Below are positions 3,575 through 34,306 of a stretch of 64,000 nucleotides of DNA, one piece after another; the stretch's first letter is position 1; every line of letters starts with the position of its first letter. Under the pieces are notes generated by a model that worked only from the letters and a program-made list of their open reading frames with translations, was not told the origin of the DNA and ran no database searches. This DNA is from an uncultured Bacilli bacterium. GTDB lineage: Bacteria > Bacillota_I > Bacilli_A > RF39 > UBA660. The translations under genes were made by a program, and so were the position numbers. Where the stretch lies: contig CALVQE010000001.1 of the NCBI GenBank assembly GCA_944355355.1, positions 69,351 through 133,350 of the forward strand, given 5' to 3'.

Positions 3575-3821
3575 CGAAATTATTTCCCGGGAAATAATTT
3601 AAATAAAAAAATCATGAATATAAGGACGAGTTAAAACCCGTGGTACCACCTTATTTCATGATTATCTCATGCACTCTTTCTCTAACGCAGAAATACGTTT
3701 CAACTCCAGAGCCATCTTCCATAGTAACCCTTTACTTATTTTCACCAATCATAAGCTCTCTAAAAAAGAATCATTATGTACTCTTTCCTTCACCATTGAA
3801 TACCCTAATTCTAACATAAAA
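3575..3821 (-). promoter_or_regulatory. T-box riboswitch leader (Met-specific by context) upstream of metG, with a terminator/antiterminator switch
   Basis: On the minus strand there is an F-box-like GCGTTA, then the T-box sequence AAGGTGGTACCACGGG (plus 3637-3652; consensus AGGGTGGTACCGCGG). It overlaps the 5' arm of a hairpin (CATGAAATAAGG ... CCTTATATTCATG, plus 3614-3660) followed by a U-tract (plus 3601-3612). The 266-nt 5' leader length is typical of T-boxes. Confidence 0.75.
3582..3595. promoter_or_regulatory. Noc-binding-site-type palindrome ATTTCCCGGGAAAT, within the 22-bp palindrome AATTATTTCCCGGGAAATAATT at 3578-3599
   Basis: Exact match to the B. subtilis NBS consensus. Located in the metG leader. 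Confidence 0.65.
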
Positions 3822-11657: not shown

Positions 11658-13283
11658 CTAAACAATTTCTATTTTATCACGATTAAAAACATTTGTCGTG
11701 ATTTCTTCCAACTCAGAACCTTTTTTAGGCTTCATTTCATCTAAAACAGACTCATCCATTAACGAATACTCAAATTTTTGTTTTAATTTTGCTATGTACT
11801 CTTCCTTTTCTTTACGCCAATCTTGTTCACTTAAAGCAAAAAAATGAACAGTCTTATCAAAATAATGCTTTAATGCCCCCTCCATTTGATCTAATTTTGA
11901 ATTCAATATCTTAGCGGTACTCTCCAACTTAGAAGTAATCAAAATATAGTCAGAAGAAGCAGCAACTATTGAAAAATCTAAAACGTAAGAAGCAATATCA
12001 GGGTCGGTTACAGCATCATCTGAAATCTTCTTCCAATTTGCTTGATACTGAATCAAATATTCTTTTTTTGCACCACAAAAGCAGTTATTAACACGTATTT
12101 CGCGTAATTTTTGAAGATATTGATTTTCTTGATCTACAATTTTCATTTCTTCTTCTCTATTTCCTTGTTCTTGAATTGGGACTGATGATTCATTCGAGAC
12201 ATTCAAAATTGAGCTATTCACAACATTCAACTCAACCTTAAAAGGGTTATTTTGAATATCCCCCAAAAGAACTAAAAGAATCAATGAAAAAGGATTCATA
12301 TTAATATTAATCTTATTCAAAATATCATTAAATTTAAAAATCATATCTCGTACTTGCTTAAAAGAAAAATTACCACTATAATTACCAGTTTTAATTAAAA
12401 CAGCAATATGAGACAATTCCTGAACAACTTTTTTTATAAAAACCTTATAATCACTGGATGTACTTTCTAAGTCTTGAATAGCTTCAACAACTTTTGAAAC
12501 ATCATTGTTAGCTACAGACTCTAATAAATCCTTAATAAATTTTGAAGAAATAGATCCATAATTCTCCAATATTTTATCTAAAGTAATTTCTTCTTCATTA
12601 CTAGATAACTGATCTAACAAACTCAAAGCATCTCTCATACCACCTTCTGATAAAGATGCAATTTCAGAAACAGCTTCATCAGTAATTTTAATATTTTCTT
12701 CCTCACATACATATTTTATTTGCTTTTTTAAATTTTCTAAGGAAATCTTTTGAAAATTAAACCGTTGACAGCGTGACAAAATAGTAATTGGAACGCTCTC
12801 AACATTAGTAGTCGCCATAATAAAAACTGCATGCTTAGGAGGTTCCTCCAAAGTAAGTAACAAAGCATTAAAAGCACTTGTAGTCATCATATGAACCTCA
12901 TCAATAATATAAATTTTGTATTTACCTGTCGATGGAGCAATCTTTACATTATTAATAAGCTCTCTAATATCATCAACACCATTATTAGAAGCAGCATCAA
13001 TTTCAATAATATCAGGACTAGTTGCAAAAGATAAACAGTTAGTACATTCTCCACACGCCTCACCATCAATAGGATTTAAACAATTAATAGTCTTTGCAAA
13101 AACCTTTGCAGTAGAAGTTTTTCCTGTTCCCCTTGGACCAGTGAATAAATAAGCATGAGAAATCTTTTGATGAATAATAGCATTTTTCAACATTTGAATA
13201 GAATAATCTTGTCCAACAATATTAGAAAATCTATCAGGACGATATTTACGATATAACACCTTATAATTCATATAATTCACCAC
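11658..13283 (-). CDS. dnaX: DNA polymerase III tau/gamma subunit
   Basis: GPRGTGKTS Walker A, clamp-loader motifs, zinc module CGECTNC. Confidence 0.95.
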   Translation of the reverse strand: MVNYMNYKVLYRKYRPDRFSNIVGQDYSIQMLKNAIIHQKISHAYLFTGPRGTGKTSTAKVFAKTINCLNPIDGEACGECTNCLSFATSPDIIEIDAASNNGVDDIRELINNVKIAPSTGKYKIYIIDEVHMMTTSAFNALLLTLEEPPKHAVFIMATTNVESVPITILSRCQRFNFQKISLENLKKQIKYVCEEENIKITDEAVSEIASLSEGGMRDALSLLDQLSSNEEEITLDKILENYGSISSKFIKDLLESVANNDVSKVVEAIQDLESTSSDYKVFIKKVVQELSHIAVLIKTGNYSGNFSFKQVRDMIFKFNDILNKININMNPFSLILLVLLGDIQNNPFKVELNVVNSSILNVSNESSVPIQEQGNREEEMKIVDQENQYLQKLREIRVNNCFCGAKKEYLIQYQANWKKISDDAVTDPDIASYVLDFSIVAASSDYILITSKLESTAKILNSKLDQMEGALKHYFDKTVHFFALSEQDWRKEKEEYIAKLKQKFEYSLMDESVLDEMKPKKGSELEEITTNVFNRDKIEIV

Positions 13284-14026: not shown

Positions 14027-14157
14027 AATATACTCCCATAAAAAAAGTGCACACAAACAGGGAATGATGTGGCTGCTATCTTCCGATCCTGACCAGATTA
14101 CACTATATTTGTTGCACGAATACATAATATCAAATATTCAAGTAAAAATCAATCCAA

Positions 14158-21407: not shown

Positions 21408-21875
21408 TTAACGCCTGTTAAAATGTTTTTTTTGTACTTTTCGTCCTCTTAAAGCACTTTCTAACCGTGTAGCTCTTAACAGTTGATTATCAAAAATACC
21501 AAAAGTGACATTTAACAATATTTTTCGCCCATTTAAGAATTCCAAAACTACATTTTTACCTTCTTTATAGTACTTATTCACATACTTCAAGCTAATCCAA
21601 GGAGTATCATGATATCGTGCAGAAGAAAGAGGAAAAAAAATCAATCCAAAAGTTTCTTCTACAATAATAGGCGCTTTATAATTAACCCCTATCATCACCT
21701 CAGTACCTTTACGCCTTCCCTCTAAACTACTTCCAAAATATTGACAACTATTTTCCATAATTTGAGTAGCATTCATATCCAAAATAAACTCTTCTTCATA
21801 CTCTAATACCTTAACTTTTTCTTTAGACAAAGGAATCAAAGCCATTGTTTCATTATTAATTTCATAATTTTTCAT
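21408..21875 (-). CDS. comK: ComK-family competence transcription factor
   Basis: YEINNETMALIP, SCQYFGSSLEGRRKGT, KAPIIVEETFGLIFFPLSS, WISLKYV and FDNQLLRATRL align with B. subtilis and S. aureus ComK blocks. Start at MKNYEI, preceded by a GGAGGGGG RBS. Occupies the slot where yaaA sits in B. subtilis. Confidence 0.75.
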   Translation of the reverse strand: MKNYEINNETMALIPLSKEKVKVLEYEEEFILDMNATQIMENSCQYFGSSLEGRRKGTEVMIGVNYKAPIIVEETFGLIFFPLSSARYHDTPWISLKYVNKYYKEGKNVVLEFLNGRKILLNVTFGIFDNQLLRATRLESALRGRKVQKKHFNRR

Positions 21876-22021
21876 AATTTTTCCCCCTCCAAAAATGAAA
21901 ATTATCTCTAGAATAACACACAAAAAGAGAAAAAAATGTCGAAAAAAGAATTGTTCTAAAAATTAAGTTTAATTAAAAAATTTATAGCATTTATTAAAAT
22001 AAAAAACTGTCACTTGACAGC

Positions 22022-24681: not shown

Positions 24682-25131
24682 TTCACCACCCCGCTCGCTT
24701 TATAACCAATATTCTACACTTTTTTTGCTCCATTTAAAAGAACAAAATTTATCCTAACATACTATTCACAAGTTATCAACAAAATTAATGCCGTATTTAA
24801 AAGAAAAAAAGCAGTTATCCACATTATCAACATTTTCAATTTTTAATAAATGTGATTAAGTTGAAAGGGTGTAAAAACTTATCCACAATAATGTGAATAT
24901 GTGCAAAAAATAAAAAAACACCCGTTAAATTCAATATAAAATTAACTAATACATTGTGAATAGTTATCAACAATTAAAAAAAAATGCACAGAAATATATA
25001 TAATAGCCCTAAAAGTTATGCACATATAAATGCAGTTTTAATGTTAGGTTAGTGGAAAAATCAATAAAGGATTGACTTTTCAAGCTATTTAATATTATAA
25101 TAAGGGAGCTTTTAACGAAGGAGGGAAATAT
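24682..25131. promoter_or_regulatory. oriC part 1 (upstream of dnaA): DnaA-box cluster and the divergent dnaA and rpmH promoters
   Basis: At least 7 DnaA-box 9-mers. Perfect TTATCCACA at about 24815 and 24879; 1-mismatch TTATCAACA (three copies) and TTATGCACA. The replication strand switch occurs here. Confidence 0.8.
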
Positions 25132-25257
25132 ATGGAAATAGGAACTTATCAACCAAATAAAAGAAAAAGAGCAAAAAAGCATGGATTCTTTGCCCGTAAA
25201 AAAACAAATATTTTAAAAAGAAGAAGAAAAAAAGGTCGTAAAGAATTATGTAAATAG
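25132..25257 (+). CDS. rpmH: 50S ribosomal protein L34
   Basis: Hand translation gives [50 protein letters not shown]. Too short for the ORF track. Confidence 0.9.
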
Positions 25258-26656: not shown

Positions 26657-27253
26657 ATGCCAGTTATAACCGAAGCAAAAACGCTTTTAGAAGCAGTGGA
26701 AACAGCTAAAAATGATTTACATACAGAAAAAATCATTTATAAACAAGAAATAATTAAAGGAAAACTTTTTAAAGGGCAAACCTATAAAGTGACTGCAGTT
26801 TCTTATCAAGATATAATGGAAGAAATAAAAAAGTTTTTAGAAGAAGCAATCGCCGGATTAGGTTTGCAAGTCCAATTTGAAACAAGTATAAAAGAAGAGT
26901 CTTTTGAAATAACAATGTATTCAGACAACAACTCAATCTTAATTGGTAAAAATGGACAAACTATGAAGTCATTAGAAACACTTGCCAGAGCAGCTATTAA
27001 TAAAGAATGGGGATTTCTTCCCAAAATCATTTTAAATGTTGAAAATTACAATGAAAAAAGAGTAGCTGCTTTAGAAAAATTAGCAATTAGAACTGCCAAA
27101 GAAGTCCGCAATACAAAAATTGATGTTGAATTAGAAAATATGAACTCTTATGAGCGAAGAATAATTCATAATAAACTTGCTAACTTTAAAGGCGTATCAA
27201 CCACAAGTATAGGGGAAGAACCTCATCGGCACGTTGTTATTAAAGCAGAGTAA
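26657..27253 (+). CDS. khpB: KhpB/Jag RNA-binding protein (Jag_N, KH and R3H domains)
   Basis: Conserved partner of yidC. Start placed at MPVITEAK. Confidence 0.8.
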   Translation: MPVITEAKTLLEAVETAKNDLHTEKIIYKQEIIKGKLFKGQTYKVTAVSYQDIMEEIKKFLEEAIAGLGLQVQFETSIKEESFEITMYSDNNSILIGKNGQTMKSLETLARAAINKEWGFLPKIILNVENYNEKRVAALEKLAIRTAKEVRNTKIDVELENMNSYERRIIHNKLANFKGVSTTSIGEEPHRHVVIKAE

Positions 27254-27288
27254 ATCTGCTTTTTTTAAAAGGAAAGAAGAGGAACAAT

Positions 27289-28914
27289 ATGAAATTAATA
27301 GATTATATGATTTCTTTACCAAAGGGCATAATATATGAAAAATATGTTCGATTATTTGAAAAGTCTACAAATTATCAAAAAATTACTAGAAAGAAAATGC
27401 TTGAAGAAATCGTATCTTTTTATAACGAAGGGAACAAGTTACAAGAATTGTGCTTATCTAAAGAGATAGTAGTTTTGAAAAAAATTAAAACAAAAAAAAT
27501 AGATAAAAAGCGTTTATCCGAAAAATATTTTGAAGAAGTTTTGTCTTTAAAAGAAAAATTACTTTTGATAACAGACTCAAATGGAAAACTATGTATACCA
27601 GAAGATATAATAGAAAATGTTTTGAATAACTTAAAACATATTAACGTTCAAAAGCTAGAAGAAAATGAAACACTAAATATCTTAATTAAAAATATCCTTT
27701 TTTATTATAAAATCTTACCTGAAAATGATTTATTAAAAATAATAAAAAAATATGTTAACTTAAATGAAGAATCTTTAAAGAACTTTTTATTGAATAATAA
27801 ATTCATTCATTTTTACATTGAAAAAGCAAAATATAAAAAGAAAGTTTTTTGGATTTATCGTGATGAAGAAATACCTCTAAGTGACTTTATTTGGATGTAC
27901 TTTCACTCAGAAGTCAAAGAATATAAAAATATTACTATAGAAGAACTATATAAGTATGCTCAAAATCCATTATCTAAATTGAATGAAGAAAAATTTGTTC
28001 AATTAATAAATGACCTGAATCAATATAATCTACCAGTAAACTATATTATTAGCGTCATCTTAACGAACGCAATATATGCTAGTGATGACGGAAAAATAGA
28101 TAAATTACTTAATATTTACAGTAAAACAATCTCAACAGAAAAACTGTCAGATATAAAAAATCACATAATAGATATGATCTTGCAATTACCTTCCGTTATG
28201 TTAAAAGGATACTCAATAAACGAGTATCAAGAAATAAAAACAAAAAAAACATTTGATGAAAGATTTCAAAAAACAATGGACAATCTTGAAAATCCAGATG
28301 TAGTGGAAGACTATTTAGAACTAAGAGAAGAATTAGATCGAATAAATTGTGATTGTGTAGAGTTTTTCGTTATGAATGAACCAAAAAAGTTTGAACGTTA
28401 TCAAAAAATGTGTCAAAAATATGGGTTAATTCATTCTAAAATTCCTGGAAATGTCATGGATAATTTTGTTTTATATCATGCATTAGAGGAGGATGAAGAA
28501 TCGCCTTTTGCAAATTATGTAAATCATCATCTAAATATCTTAGGCAAAGACTATTCAATTGCATGGCAAGTCTTAGAAAATACAGAAGTATCAATATTTC
28601 GGATCAAAAAATTAATTCCATCTCAAGCGATAGTAGAGTTAGAAGATATAAAAACAAAGAAACCGTATGTAATATACGATATTTCTCTTTCAGCAAGTGA
28701 TCCAGAAATTGTCAATTCCTACCTATACACCAAACTTATAAAAATAAATAATATCACTTTTGCAAGTGGCTGCGCCTTCTTATTTTATAAAAATCTACAT
28801 CCTGATTTGTTAACAGAAATAGAAAAGAAAAAAGAGGAAATAAAAGATATTTCGAACGACCAAACTAAGTTTTTTCTTGCATGTTTTTTAATAAATACAA
28901 AGGATTTTGACTGA
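27289..28914 (+). CDS. hypothetical 541-aa Lys-rich soluble protein with no recognisable domain, inserted between jag and mnmE
   Basis: Long ORF with consistent codon usage, an own RBS (aaggaaagaagaggaa), and a terminator downstream. Family not recognised by eye. Confidence 0.6.
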   Translation: MKLIDYMISLPKGIIYEKYVRLFEKSTNYQKITRKKMLEEIVSFYNEGNKLQELCLSKEIVVLKKIKTKKIDKKRLSEKYFEEVLSLKEKLLLITDSNGKLCIPEDIIENVLNNLKHINVQKLEENETLNILIKNILFYYKILPENDLLKIIKKYVNLNEESLKNFLLNNKFIHFYIEKAKYKKKVFWIYRDEEIPLSDFIWMYFHSEVKEYKNITIEELYKYAQNPLSKLNEEKFVQLINDLNQYNLPVNYIISVILTNAIYASDDGKIDKLLNIYSKTISTEKLSDIKNHIIDMILQLPSVMLKGYSINEYQEIKTKKTFDERFQKTMDNLENPDVVEDYLELREELDRINCDCVEFFVMNEPKKFERYQKMCQKYGLIHSKIPGNVMDNFVLYHALEEDEESPFANYVNHHLNILGKDYSIAWQVLENTEVSIFRIKKLIPSQAIVELEDIKTKKPYVIYDISLSASDPEIVNSYLYTKLIKINNITFASGCAFLFYKNLHPDLLTEIEKKKEEIKDISNDQTKFFLACFLINTKDFD

Positions 28915-28940
28915 CCAAAAATAAGGCCGGTCATTTTTTT
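28908..28940 (+). terminator. intrinsic terminator after the 541-aa gene
   Basis: TGACCaaaaataaGGCCGGTCA followed by T7, then an extended -10 promoter TGTGATATAAT (about 28975-28992) for mnmE. Confidence 0.55.
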
Positions 28941-29013: not shown

Positions 29014-30369
29014 ATGGATACAACAATCGCCGCAATATCTACAAACAATATAGGCTCATCAGCAATTAATATAGTTCGTGTAAGTGGTAAAGATGCTATA
29101 AAAATTGTTAGTTCAGTTTTTACAAATAAAAAATTAGAAACAGCTCCTAGCCATACTATTCACTATGGTTATATTACAGAAGGAAAAGAAAAAATCGATG
29201 AAGTATTAGTTATGCTTATGCGCGCGCCTAAGACTTATACAACAGAAGATACAGTAGAAATAAACTGTCATGGAGGTTATTTGACAACCAACAAGGTGTT
29301 AGAAACATTATTAACTCATGGAGCTGTACTAGCTGAACCTGGAGAATTCACTAAAAGAGCTTATTTAAATGGCCGTATTAATTTGCTAGAAGCAGAAAGT
29401 GTAAGCGACATGTTAGAGGCTAGAACCGAAAGTCAATCTAAAATGGCTATGCAAGGATTAACTGGAAAAACAACTGCCCTAATCTCTAACTTAAGAGAAA
29501 AAATGGTAGAGCTTTTAGCTAATATTGAAGTAAATATAGATTACCCAGAGTATACAGATGAATTAATTATTACGAAAGAAAACATTACTCCAGTTTTAAC
29601 GGAAATAAAAAAAGAATTAGAAAAAATTATAAATGAATCCAAAAATGGCCAATTAATAAAAAATGGTATTAACATAGCAATTGTTGGCCGACCAAATGTT
29701 GGTAAATCTTCGTTATTAAATGCAATATTAGAAGAGGACAAGGCAATTGTAACAGATATATCAGGAACAACAAGAGATATCATAGAAGGTGTCATAACAT
29801 ATCAAGGAATTTTATTCAATTTTATTGATACTGCCGGTATAAGAAAAACTGATGATATTGTGGAAAAAATAGGTGTGGAAAAAAGTAAAAAAATGTTAGA
29901 ACAAGCTGATTTTACTATCTTAGTTTTAAATAATAATGAACCATTCACAAGTGAAGATCAAGAATTATTAAAAAGTATTGATCCAGAAAAGGGAATTATT
30001 TTTATAAATAAAATAGATCTAGAAACAAAATTAAATTTAAACCAAAATAAACTAGCGGTATTAAGAGGAAGCACTATTAGTAAAGAAGGCATAGAAGAAT
30101 TAAAAGATAAGATCTTATCTTCCTTTGCTTTAAAAGATATTGCTACAAAAGACTTAACTTATCTATCAAACACAAGACAGATCAGTTTAGCCAAAAATGC
30201 TCTAGAGAACATAAAACATGTTATTTCTGAAAATGAAAAAGATGTACCAGTTGATATGTTAGCTATCGAAATTAAAGAAGCTTGGGAAAATTTAGGCAAA
30301 ATAATGGGCGAATATTATGAAGACGAATTAGTCGACAACATTTTTGTTAGATTTTGTTTAGGAAAGTAG
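29014..30369 (+). CDS. mnmE: tRNA modification GTPase MnmE
   Basis: G1 motif GRPNVGKSS, C-terminal CLGK. Confidence 0.95.
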   Translation: MDTTIAAISTNNIGSSAINIVRVSGKDAIKIVSSVFTNKKLETAPSHTIHYGYITEGKEKIDEVLVMLMRAPKTYTTEDTVEINCHGGYLTTNKVLETLLTHGAVLAEPGEFTKRAYLNGRINLLEAESVSDMLEARTESQSKMAMQGLTGKTTALISNLREKMVELLANIEVNIDYPEYTDELIITKENITPVLTEIKKELEKIINESKNGQLIKNGINIAIVGRPNVGKSSLLNAILEEDKAIVTDISGTTRDIIEGVITYQGILFNFIDTAGIRKTDDIVEKIGVEKSKKMLEQADFTILVLNNNEPFTSEDQELLKSIDPEKGIIFINKIDLETKLNLNQNKLAVLRGSTISKEGIEELKDKILSSFALKDIATKDLTYLSNTRQISLAKNALENIKHVISENEKDVPVDMLAIEIKEAWENLGKIMGEYYEDELVDNIFVRFCLGK

Positions 30370-33091: not shown

Positions 33092-34306
33092 GTGAATACA
33101 GAACAAAAGGTAATACAAGTACCGATTGAAGATATTATTCCCAATCGTTTTCAACCACGTCTGGCTTTTGATGAAGAAGGATTAAAAGAATTATCTGAAT
33201 CAATTAAACAACATGGCATTATTCAACCATTAGTTTTAAGAAGACTAGGGGATAAATACGAAATTATTGCCGGCGAAAGAAGATACAAAGCTGCAACAAT
33301 GGCAGGGTTAAGAACAGTTCCAGCTATTGTTTCTGATATCGATGATAATAAAAGTGCCGAAATTGCTTTAGTAGAAAACATTCAAAGAAGAAATCTTACA
33401 CCAATTGAAGAAGCAAAATCTTATAAAAATCTTTTAGACCGAGGCTATATGACACAAGAGCAACTAGCTGAGAAAATGGGTGTGAGTCAAAGTTCTATTG
33501 CTAATAAATTAAGATTATTAAATTTAGCACCTGAAGTCCAAGATGCTCTTTTACAAGAAAAAATCAGTGAAAGACATGCAAGAAGTTTACTATCTTTACC
33601 AAAAGAAGAACAAGCTGAATGGTTACAAAAGATAATAACAAAACGTTTAACCGTTCGTCAATTAGACTTAGAAATAAAAAAAGCGAAAGGAGAACAGGGG
33701 GAAGAAATTCCATTAGTTTCTTCTCAACCAGATTTAAATACTATGATAAATAACGCAACAGACATTAATCCAACAGAAGTTCAAGAAAAAACACCAATAA
33801 AAGAACCTGTAGTAGAAGAAAAAAATATGCCAAATAAGTTTTTTAACTTTTTGGAAGATGAAGCAGCAAATATGAACATGACAATAAATTCAAATCTTAA
33901 TACACCAATTGAAGATACCCAACCAGAAGATACAAATATTGAAGTGTTAGATGATTTTAGTCTCGAAGAACCAGCAAAAGAGGAAACTAAAACTCAAGAA
34001 GAGGATACAATCATGCCGTTCTTCTTTGGAGCTAATACATCCGAAAATAAAGAACAAAATACAATAGAAGAAATTAAAAATACACCTCAAGAAATAATTG
34101 TTGATCCTATGGATTCAGTGATGAAATTAGATCCAAACTACAATAAAAAAGTAGAAGAAGCTCAAGGATTAGATTTAAAAACCGCTATAAATGAAGTTCG
34201 CGATTTAGTCGAACAACTAAAGGCTCGGGGCTTCCAAATTAACTTAGATGAACTTGATCTTTCGGGCAATTACCAAATGACAATAAGCATTAAAAATGAT
34301 GACTAG
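33092..34306 (+). CDS. noc: ParB/Noc-family protein with Noc-type DNA-recognition residues and a long acidic C-terminal extension; likely nucleoid occlusion protein Noc rather than Spo0J
   Basis: GTG start with an AAGGGG RBS. The ParB N-terminal box is IPNRFQPR, which is Noc-like (Spo0J has PNPYQPR). The HTH reads GVSQSSIANKLRLLNLAPEVQDALLQEKISERHAR, giving Gln, Lys and Arg at the positions that discriminate NBS from parS, versus R...G in Spo0J. It sits directly after rsmG, where B. subtilis has noc. It is 404 aa, against about 283 for a typical Noc. Confidence 0.6.
   Translation: MNTEQKVIQVPIEDIIPNRFQPRLAFDEEGLKELSESIKQHGIIQPLVLRRLGDKYEIIAGERRYKAATMAGLRTVPAIVSDIDDNKSAEIALVENIQRRNLTPIEEAKSYKNLLDRGYMTQEQLAEKMGVSQSSIANKLRLLNLAPEVQDALLQEKISERHARSLLSLPKEEQAEWLQKIITKRLTVRQLDLEIKKAKGEQGEEIPLVSSQPDLNTMINNATDINPTEVQEKTPIKEPVVEEKNMPNKFFNFLEDEAANMNMTINSNLNTPIEDTQPEDTNIEVLDDFSLEEPAKEETKTQEEDTIMPFFFGANTSENKEQNTIEEIKNTPQEIIVDPMDSVMKLDPNYNKKVEEAQGLDLKTAINEVRDLVEQLKARGFQINLDELDLSGNYQMTISIKNDD

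Follow-up and report, generated by a model that had tools for sequence, protein, structure and literature searches.

A fast-evolving, two-module protein related to DUF7986 is encoded between jag and mnmE in an uncultured Bacilli bacterium

We analysed a 541-amino-acid (aa) open reading frame (ORF), hereafter X, that lies between jag and mnmE near the replication origin of an uncultured Bacilli bacterium (assembly GCA_944355355.1, contig CALVQE010000001.1, positions 69,351 to 133,350 of the forward strand). The window denotes that whole stretch of 64,000 nucleotides (nt), and coordinates are those of the window unless a relative's locus is named. X is a real, intact and vertically inherited coding gene that diverges much faster than the surrounding housekeeping proteins while under purifying selection. 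Judging from its sequence, the product is built of two separable modules, the second of which belongs, on indirect but strong grounds, to the DUF7986 family (PF25948). X thus belongs to a domain family that is catalogued but uncharacterised, carries an extra module that has no Pfam record, and is only mildly unusual. We infer a binding or adaptor role and tentatively read the product as a non-catalytic RNA- or ribosome-associated binding protein.

The first-pass annotation had placed a 541-aa ORF between jag and mnmE, and the ORF list, the ratio of nonsynonymous to synonymous substitution rates (dN/dS) and intact copies in relatives confirmed it as real (27289..28914, plus strand, with an ATG start and a TGA stop at 28912-28914). 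Compared with a 78%-identical orthologue on a 27-kb metagenome contig, X had a dN/dS of 0.17 at a dS of 0.74, and by segment the ratio ran from 0.07 to 0.32; we regard X as coding because the overall value is low and every segment lies below 0.33. The same segments served as a coarse test for positive selection, and none exceeded 0.33. Neighbouring genes gave dS values of 0.49-1.57 and dN/dS values of 0.02-0.08 in the same comparison, and the third-position GC content (GC3) of X (20.5%) fell within their range of 17-21%. Recent horizontal transfer was rejected on these grounds, dS and GC3 being equal to those of the neighbours. Total GC was lower (25%), a difference that stems from codon position 2 and hence from amino-acid composition.

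The exact protein was found in public assemblies (NCBI, ENA and Logan; longest contig 156 kb), and its 90% cluster has 20 members, 15 of which were listed: 12 of 541 aa, two of 556 aa and one 305-aa piece on a 1.2-kb contig. The order jag-X-mnmE was retained in four lineages, in which X is 98%, 78%, 36% (P0003) and 30% (P0004) identical, and in close strains X was intact and syntenic, neither absent nor fragmented. The contrast with its neighbours is seen in the identities between the window and three relatives, namely L001, L006 (carrying P0003) and L010 (carrying P0004):

DnaA: 95% in L001, 90% in L006, 84% in L010
MnmG: 94% in L001, 83% in L006, 81% in L010
Jag: 93% in L001, 74% in L006, 68% in L010
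X: about 77-78% in L001, 36% in L006, 30% in L010

One contig from these comparisons, CAYQKO010000002.1 (L006/L009), comes from a metagenome-assembled genome (MAG) labelled as an uncultured Muribaculaceae bacterium; the label or the binning is probably wrong, because the origin cluster on the contig is of the Firmicutes type and includes ComK, and its DnaA shares 90% identity with that of the window.

A functionless or decaying ORF, tolerated at an operon boundary, could also evolve fast, have a low-complexity AT-rich composition and occur in split form in one lineage, as this family does. Such an explanation is extremely unlikely and close to refuted by the selection data above; in addition, the 541-aa frame stays intact in relatives as distant as 30% identity and in those members of the 90% cluster that are full-length, and AlphaFold2 (AF2) confidence was very high from an alignment of 42 sequences.

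Contrary to its first description as an orphan, X has many relatives. An exhaustive phmmer search of 1.84 billion cluster representatives at 50% identity returned 95 proteins at E<=1e-3; of these, 21 reached E<=1e-10 and 10 reached E<=1e-30. Many of the 95 are 500-546 aa long, and 61 metagenome loci were recovered for the family. A word-indexed search found just two close homologues (P0001, 98%; P0002, 78%), both with PF25948 matches on record at E<=1e-5. The earlier statement that X has no recognisable motif therefore does not hold, and a known domain family has been found, though one without known function. A 42-sequence profile run against an index of 5.8 billion proteins gave two close homologues only, as low-complexity sequence swamped the word index, and a scan of genome contigs gave two species only. 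Further phmmer matches of X included P0058, P0061, P0064, P0068 and P0093, all but P0058 with PF25948 on record. Membership is indirect, through homologues, since our local Pfam copy gave no PF25948 match even for P0001 or P0002. The family signature, SLFxI...D...DIxLSxS...T[RK]LI...SG..F.F, reads in X as SIFRI, DISLSAS, TKLI and SGCAFLF.

Direct scans of X against Pfam, NCBIfam, PADLOC and PDB sequences gave no significant match, and the best PHROGs match had an E-value of 0.07. No enzymatic domain was seen in the Pfam, NCBIfam, PADLOC or PDB scans. Searches of the IMG/VR, INPHARED phage and PLSDB plasmid collections with X, P0018 and P0156 gave no relatives apart from SEC-C motif matches, which the SEC-C+DUF7986 query returned. 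The first proposal was right in that X is restricted to a lineage, has no known function and lies near the origin in a cluster that is otherwise conserved. The parts of X referred to below are as follows:

27289..28248, plus strand: N-module (aa 1-320), helical with a winged-helix unit according to the AF2 secondary structure; no Pfam family on record
27712..27858, plus strand: predicted winged-helix unit (aa 142-190; beta strand, three helices, beta-hairpin), from DSSP on the model
28189..28227, plus strand: family signature LPSVMLKGYSINEY (aa 301-313), with P301 in 36/42, S302 in 34/42 and G307 in 41/42 sequences
28306..28911, plus strand: C-module (aa ~340-541), PF25948/DUF7986, a predicted helical shell around an oligonucleotide/oligosaccharide-binding (OB) fold
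28579..28788, plus strand: predicted OB-fold core (aa 431-500), b1(432-443)-b2-b3-alpha-b4-b5(489-499), from DSSP on both AF2 models

The N-module, of ~320 aa, is common to 42 aligned full-length relatives, with Y19 and E59 invariant and K12, Y29, Y45, L63, L87, K90 and G307 nearly so, and it ends in the motif [ML]PSxxLxGx[TS]PxEY. Precomputed Pfam tables listed no family for relatives consisting of this module alone, and its profile found no relative among PDB sequences. Two kinds of C-terminus follow it: type A, which is DUF7986, and type B, for which hhalign detected no homology to type A (probability <1% in two set-ups). Type-B proteins are 500-527 aa long (for example P0018, 513 aa). A mixed A1 profile matched MarR (E 0.007, the only profile match to an HTH family), and we assigned this match to the type-B C-terminus. 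The N-module also occurs alone in 307-aa proteins that are common in human-gut contigs. In L064 (6410-8888), the gene for a 514-aa type-B member and, 10 nt downstream of it, one for a 307-aa protein with the N-module alone are tandem paralogues (hhalign probability 100%, E 2e-54). Similar arrangements were seen in ~45 human-gut loci (L022-L074), so the pair is widespread in metagenome contigs.

The C-module likewise occurs without the other. From X, phmmer reached stand-alone DUF7986 proteins of ~200-220 aa (P0058, P0061 and P0143) over aa ~340-540, and a profile of these proteins recovered 36 proteins, all with PF25948. Many of the 36 are 'SEC-C domain-containing proteins' of 260-290 aa in which the SEC-C motif is N-terminal; named sources of such SEC-C+DUF7986 proteins include Bacilli, Clostridioides and Metaclostridioides mangenotii, and the genes downstream of them are not N-module relatives. 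A C-module profile run against PDB sequences found only the SEC-C motif, contributed by these relatives. The N-module is associated with SEC-C as well: the motif is inserted in that of P0059, the sole PF02810 match among the 42 aligned relatives. In L020 (5640-7175), a 511-aa protein with a C-terminal SEC-C shares the winged-helix, helical and PSxxLNG region of the N-module (hhalign probability 88.5%), and its gene lies ~0.8 kb, or one small gene, upstream of one for a 521-aa family member. In L084 (6052-7642; also L085 and L086), all from one lineage, the family gene is broken at the module boundary, a few residues past PSxxLxG, into overlapping ORFs: one of 318 aa, with 27% identity to aa 1-317 of X (E 3e-21), and one of 213 aa that is DUF7986. 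All three samples (L084-086) have the same junction sequence, and the split could be a naturally occurring two-gene form or else a recent frameshift.

Fast divergence, tandem paralogues and alternative C-termini are also features that an arms race would produce, and X might accordingly be a sensor in conflict with phages or other mobile elements. X is 36% identical where DnaA is 90% identical, its dN/dS is 3-5 times that of its neighbours, and KilA-N or Zeta-toxin/TraX genes occur in some family contexts. We nonetheless think a conflict role improbable: PADLOC gave no match, X has no effector domain (nuclease, ATPase or similar), the phage, plasmid and IMG/VR collections hold no homologues, the neighbours of X are housekeeping genes, no segment exceeds a dN/dS of 0.33, and the gene is stable in position and vertically inherited.

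We modelled X with AF2 from the 42-sequence alignment (predicted local distance difference test, pLDDT, 91.6; predicted template-modelling score, pTM, 0.79) and the C-module from a 50-sequence joint alignment (pLDDT 95.5, pTM 0.90). In the model of X, DSSP assigns helices through aa ~430, with the winged helix at 142-190, then the OB topology and then two helices. This agrees with the initial description of a soluble, mostly helical protein except for the C-terminal five-stranded beta-barrel. In Foldseek searches of the whole chain, no match reached E<=0.001 either in PDB (best E 0.15) or in BFVD (best E 0.04), and the top full-length match, chain 2 of the yeast pre-initiation complex 7o4i, was insignificant (probability 0.13, template-modelling (TM) score 0.10). 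The OB core matched YB-1/YBX2 cold-shock domains (CSDs), the P. abyssi replication protein A (RPA) core, Stn1-Ten1 and RecO (probability 0.84-0.99, TM-target 0.23-0.61, E 0.03-0.3), and other local OB matches included eIF1A/eIF5A, the RsgA OB and viral S1/CSD/LEF-3 proteins. Local matches to the winged helix-turn-helix (wHTH) repressors PagR, HlyU and MecI/BlaI (probability 0.66-0.96, E 0.3-1.2) probably belong to aa ~120-190, a placement that we assigned because the output carries no query coordinates. At E<=10, X matched no helix-turn-helix (HTH) family hidden Markov model (HMM) and no CSD or S1 HMM.

The lysine richness first reported for X holds only weakly (12.8%, compared with 8-11% in the neighbours), and the protein as a whole has a net charge of -5 and a pI of 6.1. 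X has seven scattered cysteines, and those of the patch that had been singled out (C354, C356 and C375) are present in the sequence but not conserved, C354 occurring in 2/9, C375 in 3/9 and C356 in 8/9 members of the closest subfamily; a metal site at this patch was rejected because the cysteines are not conserved. PF02810 does not match X, which also does not fit the CxCx8-9C[HC] motif.

Our tentative reading, that X is a fast-evolving RNA- or ribosome-associated protein of two modules, draws on three observations: its OB fold is most like those of CSD, S1 and translation-factor proteins, both of its modules recur with the SEC-C motif, and its neighbours are centred on RNA and the ribosome. 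The OB fold would bind single-stranded RNA, or an RNA or protein surface of the ribosome; the N-module would supply contacts to a partner or to itself; and X would have an accessory part in the RNA- and ribosome-centred processes that its neighbours serve (RNase P, YidC, KhpB/Jag, MnmEG and RsmG). One report describes the SEC-C motif of SecA as binding SecB and ribosomes (10.1101/613315). In P0153, which combines SEC-C and DUF7986, the SEC-C region aligns to the start of the NCBIfam methionyl aminopeptidase model PRK12318, far below its cut-off. The ribosome theme is also favoured by a paralogue of X whose gene immediately precedes rplI-dnaB.

Several observations weigh against this reading. 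We infer the ligand entirely; the Foldseek E-values are weak (0.03-0.3) and concern the barrel only, and protein-protein OB folds (RPA14 and Ten1) match equally well. X itself has no SEC-C motif and no CSD or S1 HMM match, and the motif is promiscuous, since YchJ is reported to be a transcription factor (PMC13377102). Nor is the family basic: the OB core of X has a net charge of +1, most members have a pI of 5.2-6.7, and the winged-helix segment averages a net charge of -3.6 over 42 members. The invariant residues of DUF7986 (F, D, D, S, R, G and F) are not of the aromatic or basic kind found in RNP motifs, and strands b2 and b3 of X (IVELED and PYVIY) contain no RNP1- or RNP2-type motif. Gene contexts across the family are heterogeneous and lack a conserved partner: among members of the X subfamily, P0005 follows a DedA/VTT gene, the paralogue P0007 lies directly upstream of rplI-dnaB, and P0011 is surrounded by genes of unknown function, with Zeta-toxin and TraX genes no more than a few kb upstream.

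Much of the same evidence would suit a protein-protein adaptor or scaffold, in which the winged-helix units and the OB fold with its flanking helices mediate oligomerisation or partner binding and nucleic acid is not bound. We consider this doubtful, though by no means far-fetched. Possible analogues are the RPA14/RPA32/Ten1-Stn1 cores or tandem-winged-helix subunits, and the setting might be the YidC/Sec or ribosome-exit machinery. An acidic to neutral composition that extends to the winged-helix segment would fit such a role, as would the location of X in the yidC-jag operon, the ability of SEC-C to bind SecB and ribosomes reported above for SecA, and the longest high-probability C-module alignments (90-111 columns, covering barrel and helix), which are to the RPA trimerisation core and Stn1-Ten1. 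The insignificant top full-length match, 7o4i chain 2, is presumably TFIIH Tfb2, a multi-winged-helix subunit, and would point the same way. On the other side, no neighbouring partner is conserved across the family, no co-evolving neighbour was identified and the structural matches are weak (E>0.03, TM-query <=0.29).

The combination of a winged helix with an OB-type barrel is also a ModE-like layout, and X could in principle be a small-ligand sensor: its barrel would, in the manner of TOBE/Mop domains, bind a metabolite or ion, and its winged helix would transduce the signal. Among the DUF7986 invariants are two Asp residues, one Ser and one Arg/Lys, and CusF/SilF-type metal-binding barrels are among the weak Foldseek matches. 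We hold this very unlikely, given that no TOBE/Mop HMM or strong structural match was found, the invariant Arg is not retained across the X subfamily (position 482 is T/S/K/R) and no transporter or pathway genes are linked.

Returning to the RNA or ribosome association, a bolder version would make X the representative of an undescribed family of two-module proteins (an N-terminal winged-helix module absent from the Pfam records plus the DUF7986 OB) in uncultured Bacilli from the gut and the environment. Its modules, which recur in fusion with SEC-C, would make up a new class of accessory factor that is associated with the ribosome or RNA and acts with YidC, KhpB (Jag), RNase P and MnmEG, and its very fast divergence would stem from co-evolving with a partner specific to the lineage. 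Taken as a whole, this is unlikely.

The gene order around X is that of a Firmicutes origin cluster. A minus-strand block contains, in order, recF, comK, dnaN and dnaA, and the plus strand carries rpmH (25132-25257), rnpA, yidC, jag, X, mnmE (29014-30369), mnmG, rsmG and a parB-like gene. The GC skew switches near 24800, and X lies 2.6 kb from dnaA/oriC. Directly upstream is jag/khpB (26606/26657-27253; KH and R3H domains), whose stop codon (27251-27253) is 35 nt from the start of X. The signals on either side of X are as follows:

27242..27266, plus strand: terminator-like hairpin and T-run straddling the jag stop, with arms AAAGCAGA / gtaaa / TCTGCTTT, directly upstream of X
27276..27284, plus strand: Shine-Dalgarno-like AGAAGAGGA, read from the sequence, 5 nt before the ATG of X
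28908..28940, plus strand: terminator-like hairpin (28908-28933) followed by U7 (28934-28940), overlapping the X stop codon
28984..28992, plus strand: extended -10 element TGaTATAAT of the mnmE promoter, read from the sequence, without a good -35 element

The ribosome-binding site and mnmE promoter that had been proposed are present, and so, at the proposed downstream terminator, is a hairpin with a T-run. At the first of these, a purine-rich GGAG/AGAG block is preserved in relatives. The hairpin after X is weak alone (-9.7 kcal/mol, z -1.3) but conserved in the 78% relative (L001), where one A-U pair is changed to G-C in a compensatory manner; L006 has a different, stronger hairpin in its place. 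The extended -10 element is conserved in the window, L001 and L002, the three close relatives compared. The jag-stop hairpin, also weak by itself (-10.3 kcal/mol, z -2.0), recurs in each of the five lineages compared, and in L006 and L010 an A-U pair has become G-C, a compensatory change. A simple terminator scan called neither hairpin.

X thus occupies the seam between two transcription units, marked by the jag terminator-like hairpin on one side and the mnmE promoter on the other, and is not inserted inside an invariant unit as had been suggested; other insertions occur in the clade. Because the upstream gap is only 35 nt, the promoter scan listed no promoter-like site on the strand of X from 26817 to its start, and the jag-stop hairpin is conserved, transcription of X probably depends on read-through out of the rpmH/rnpA-yidC-jag unit and hence proceeds at an attenuated level. 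The seam is permissive to extra genes, since the P0004 lineage carries three more there: in L010 (9699-11344), the interval from X to mnmE contains ORFs of 79 and 185 aa, both unknown, and a MazG gene on the minus strand.

The proximity of X to the origin, together with the location of a paralogue directly upstream of rplI-dnaB, raises the question of whether X is a double-stranded-DNA-binding regulator or an origin or nucleoid factor, with its winged helix on DNA, its OB fold serving as a sensor or binding single-stranded DNA, and its position functional. RPA, RecO and Stn1 are among the OB matches, and the winged-helix region locally resembles the ArsR/PagR/HlyU and MecI/BlaI wHTH repressors with probabilities of up to 0.96. 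We judge a DNA-binding role unlikely: no HTH family HMM matched at E<=10, the winged-helix segment is acidic on average and other family members lie away from replication genes. No repeated operator-like sites were noticed, and no search for such sites was made.

Other parts of the origin region also depart from the usual order. In the window, a comK homologue (21408-21923, minus strand; Pfam ComK, E 2e-37) lies between dnaN and recF, a further lineage-specific insertion, in the conserved dnaA-dnaN-recF-gyrB block, that is shared by L001 and L006. The P0004 lineage (L010, 3071-5766) has a Q_salvage gene and three small ORFs between dnaA and rpmH, and additional genes occur between rsmG and parB in the same clade. 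The ParB/Noc-like protein of the window (33092-34306, plus strand) has ParB_N and HTH_ParB domains in aa 1-199 and an acidic, low-complexity C-terminal tail of ~200 aa; its gene has no adjacent parA/soj and is followed by a GH3 gene, and its 90% cluster contains length variants of 404, 423 and 428 aa. Rfam identified a T-box leader (3619-3802) and a small signal recognition particle (SRP) RNA (14041-14121), both on the minus strand. The dnaX gene downstream of the SRP RNA (11658-13283, minus strand) also encodes exactly 541 aa, a coincidence unrelated to X.

With these results, an apparent orphan becomes structurally annotated, and DUF7986 gains a predicted fold assignment, an OB fold in a helical shell. 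A second, apparently uncatalogued module of ~320 aa is defined, and fusion, a split gene and an association with SEC-C that both share connect it with DUF7986; through SEC-C, a link to the biology of ribosomes, RNA or secretion can be tested. In addition, the 'invariant' Firmicutes origin cluster is punctuated in this clade at operon boundaries by X, comK and the extra genes of relatives, and such insertions are useful for annotating MAGs of uncultured Bacilli. The value is modest, and no long-standing question becomes testable through X alone.

Among known proteins, those of the DUF7986 family (stand-alone P0058, P0061 and P0143; SEC-C-fused P0153, P0169 and P0171) share the C-terminal ~200 aa of X, its signature and its predicted OB fold, but lack its ~320-aa N-module, and many have an N-terminal SEC-C zinc motif that is absent from X. 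Because no member has a known function, membership says nothing about the mechanism of X. The zinc motif likewise separates X from other SEC-C proteins (PF02810; the SecA metal-binding domain, YecA and YchJ). Conversely, the type-B paralogues (P0018 and the 514-aa protein of L064) and the 307-aa proteins have the N-module of X, including Y19, E59, K12, Y29, G307 and PSxxLxG; the C-terminal half of the type-B proteins is not detectably related to the DUF7986 of X, their gene contexts differ and none has been characterised. The winged-helix repressors PagR (2zkz), HlyU (3jth) and MecI/BlaI (1sax/1xsd) are locally similar in fold to X at aa ~120-190, whereas the unit in X is acidic, has no HTH HMM match and is embedded in a 320-aa helical module. 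The CSD of YB-1 (PDB 6a6l, 5yts and 6kug) has a five-stranded barrel like that of X (probability 0.97-0.99, TM-target 0.56-0.61, root-mean-square deviation 3.0-4.1 A over ~67 columns), but identity is ~10%, the E-values are 0.03-0.3, and the barrel of X is without RNP1/RNP2, wrapped in helices and roughly neutral in charge. X differs from the RPA trimerisation core and Stn1-Ten1 (8aas_C, 1l1o_B, 3kf8_D and 4joi_B) in being bacterial and single-chain, in its reversed order with the winged helix N-terminal, in its weak scores and in showing no sequence similarity to them. What it shares with them is an OB barrel with a flanking helix (90-111 columns, TM-query 0.26-0.29), and RPA32 and Stn1, like the X model, combine OB and winged-helix folds in one chain.

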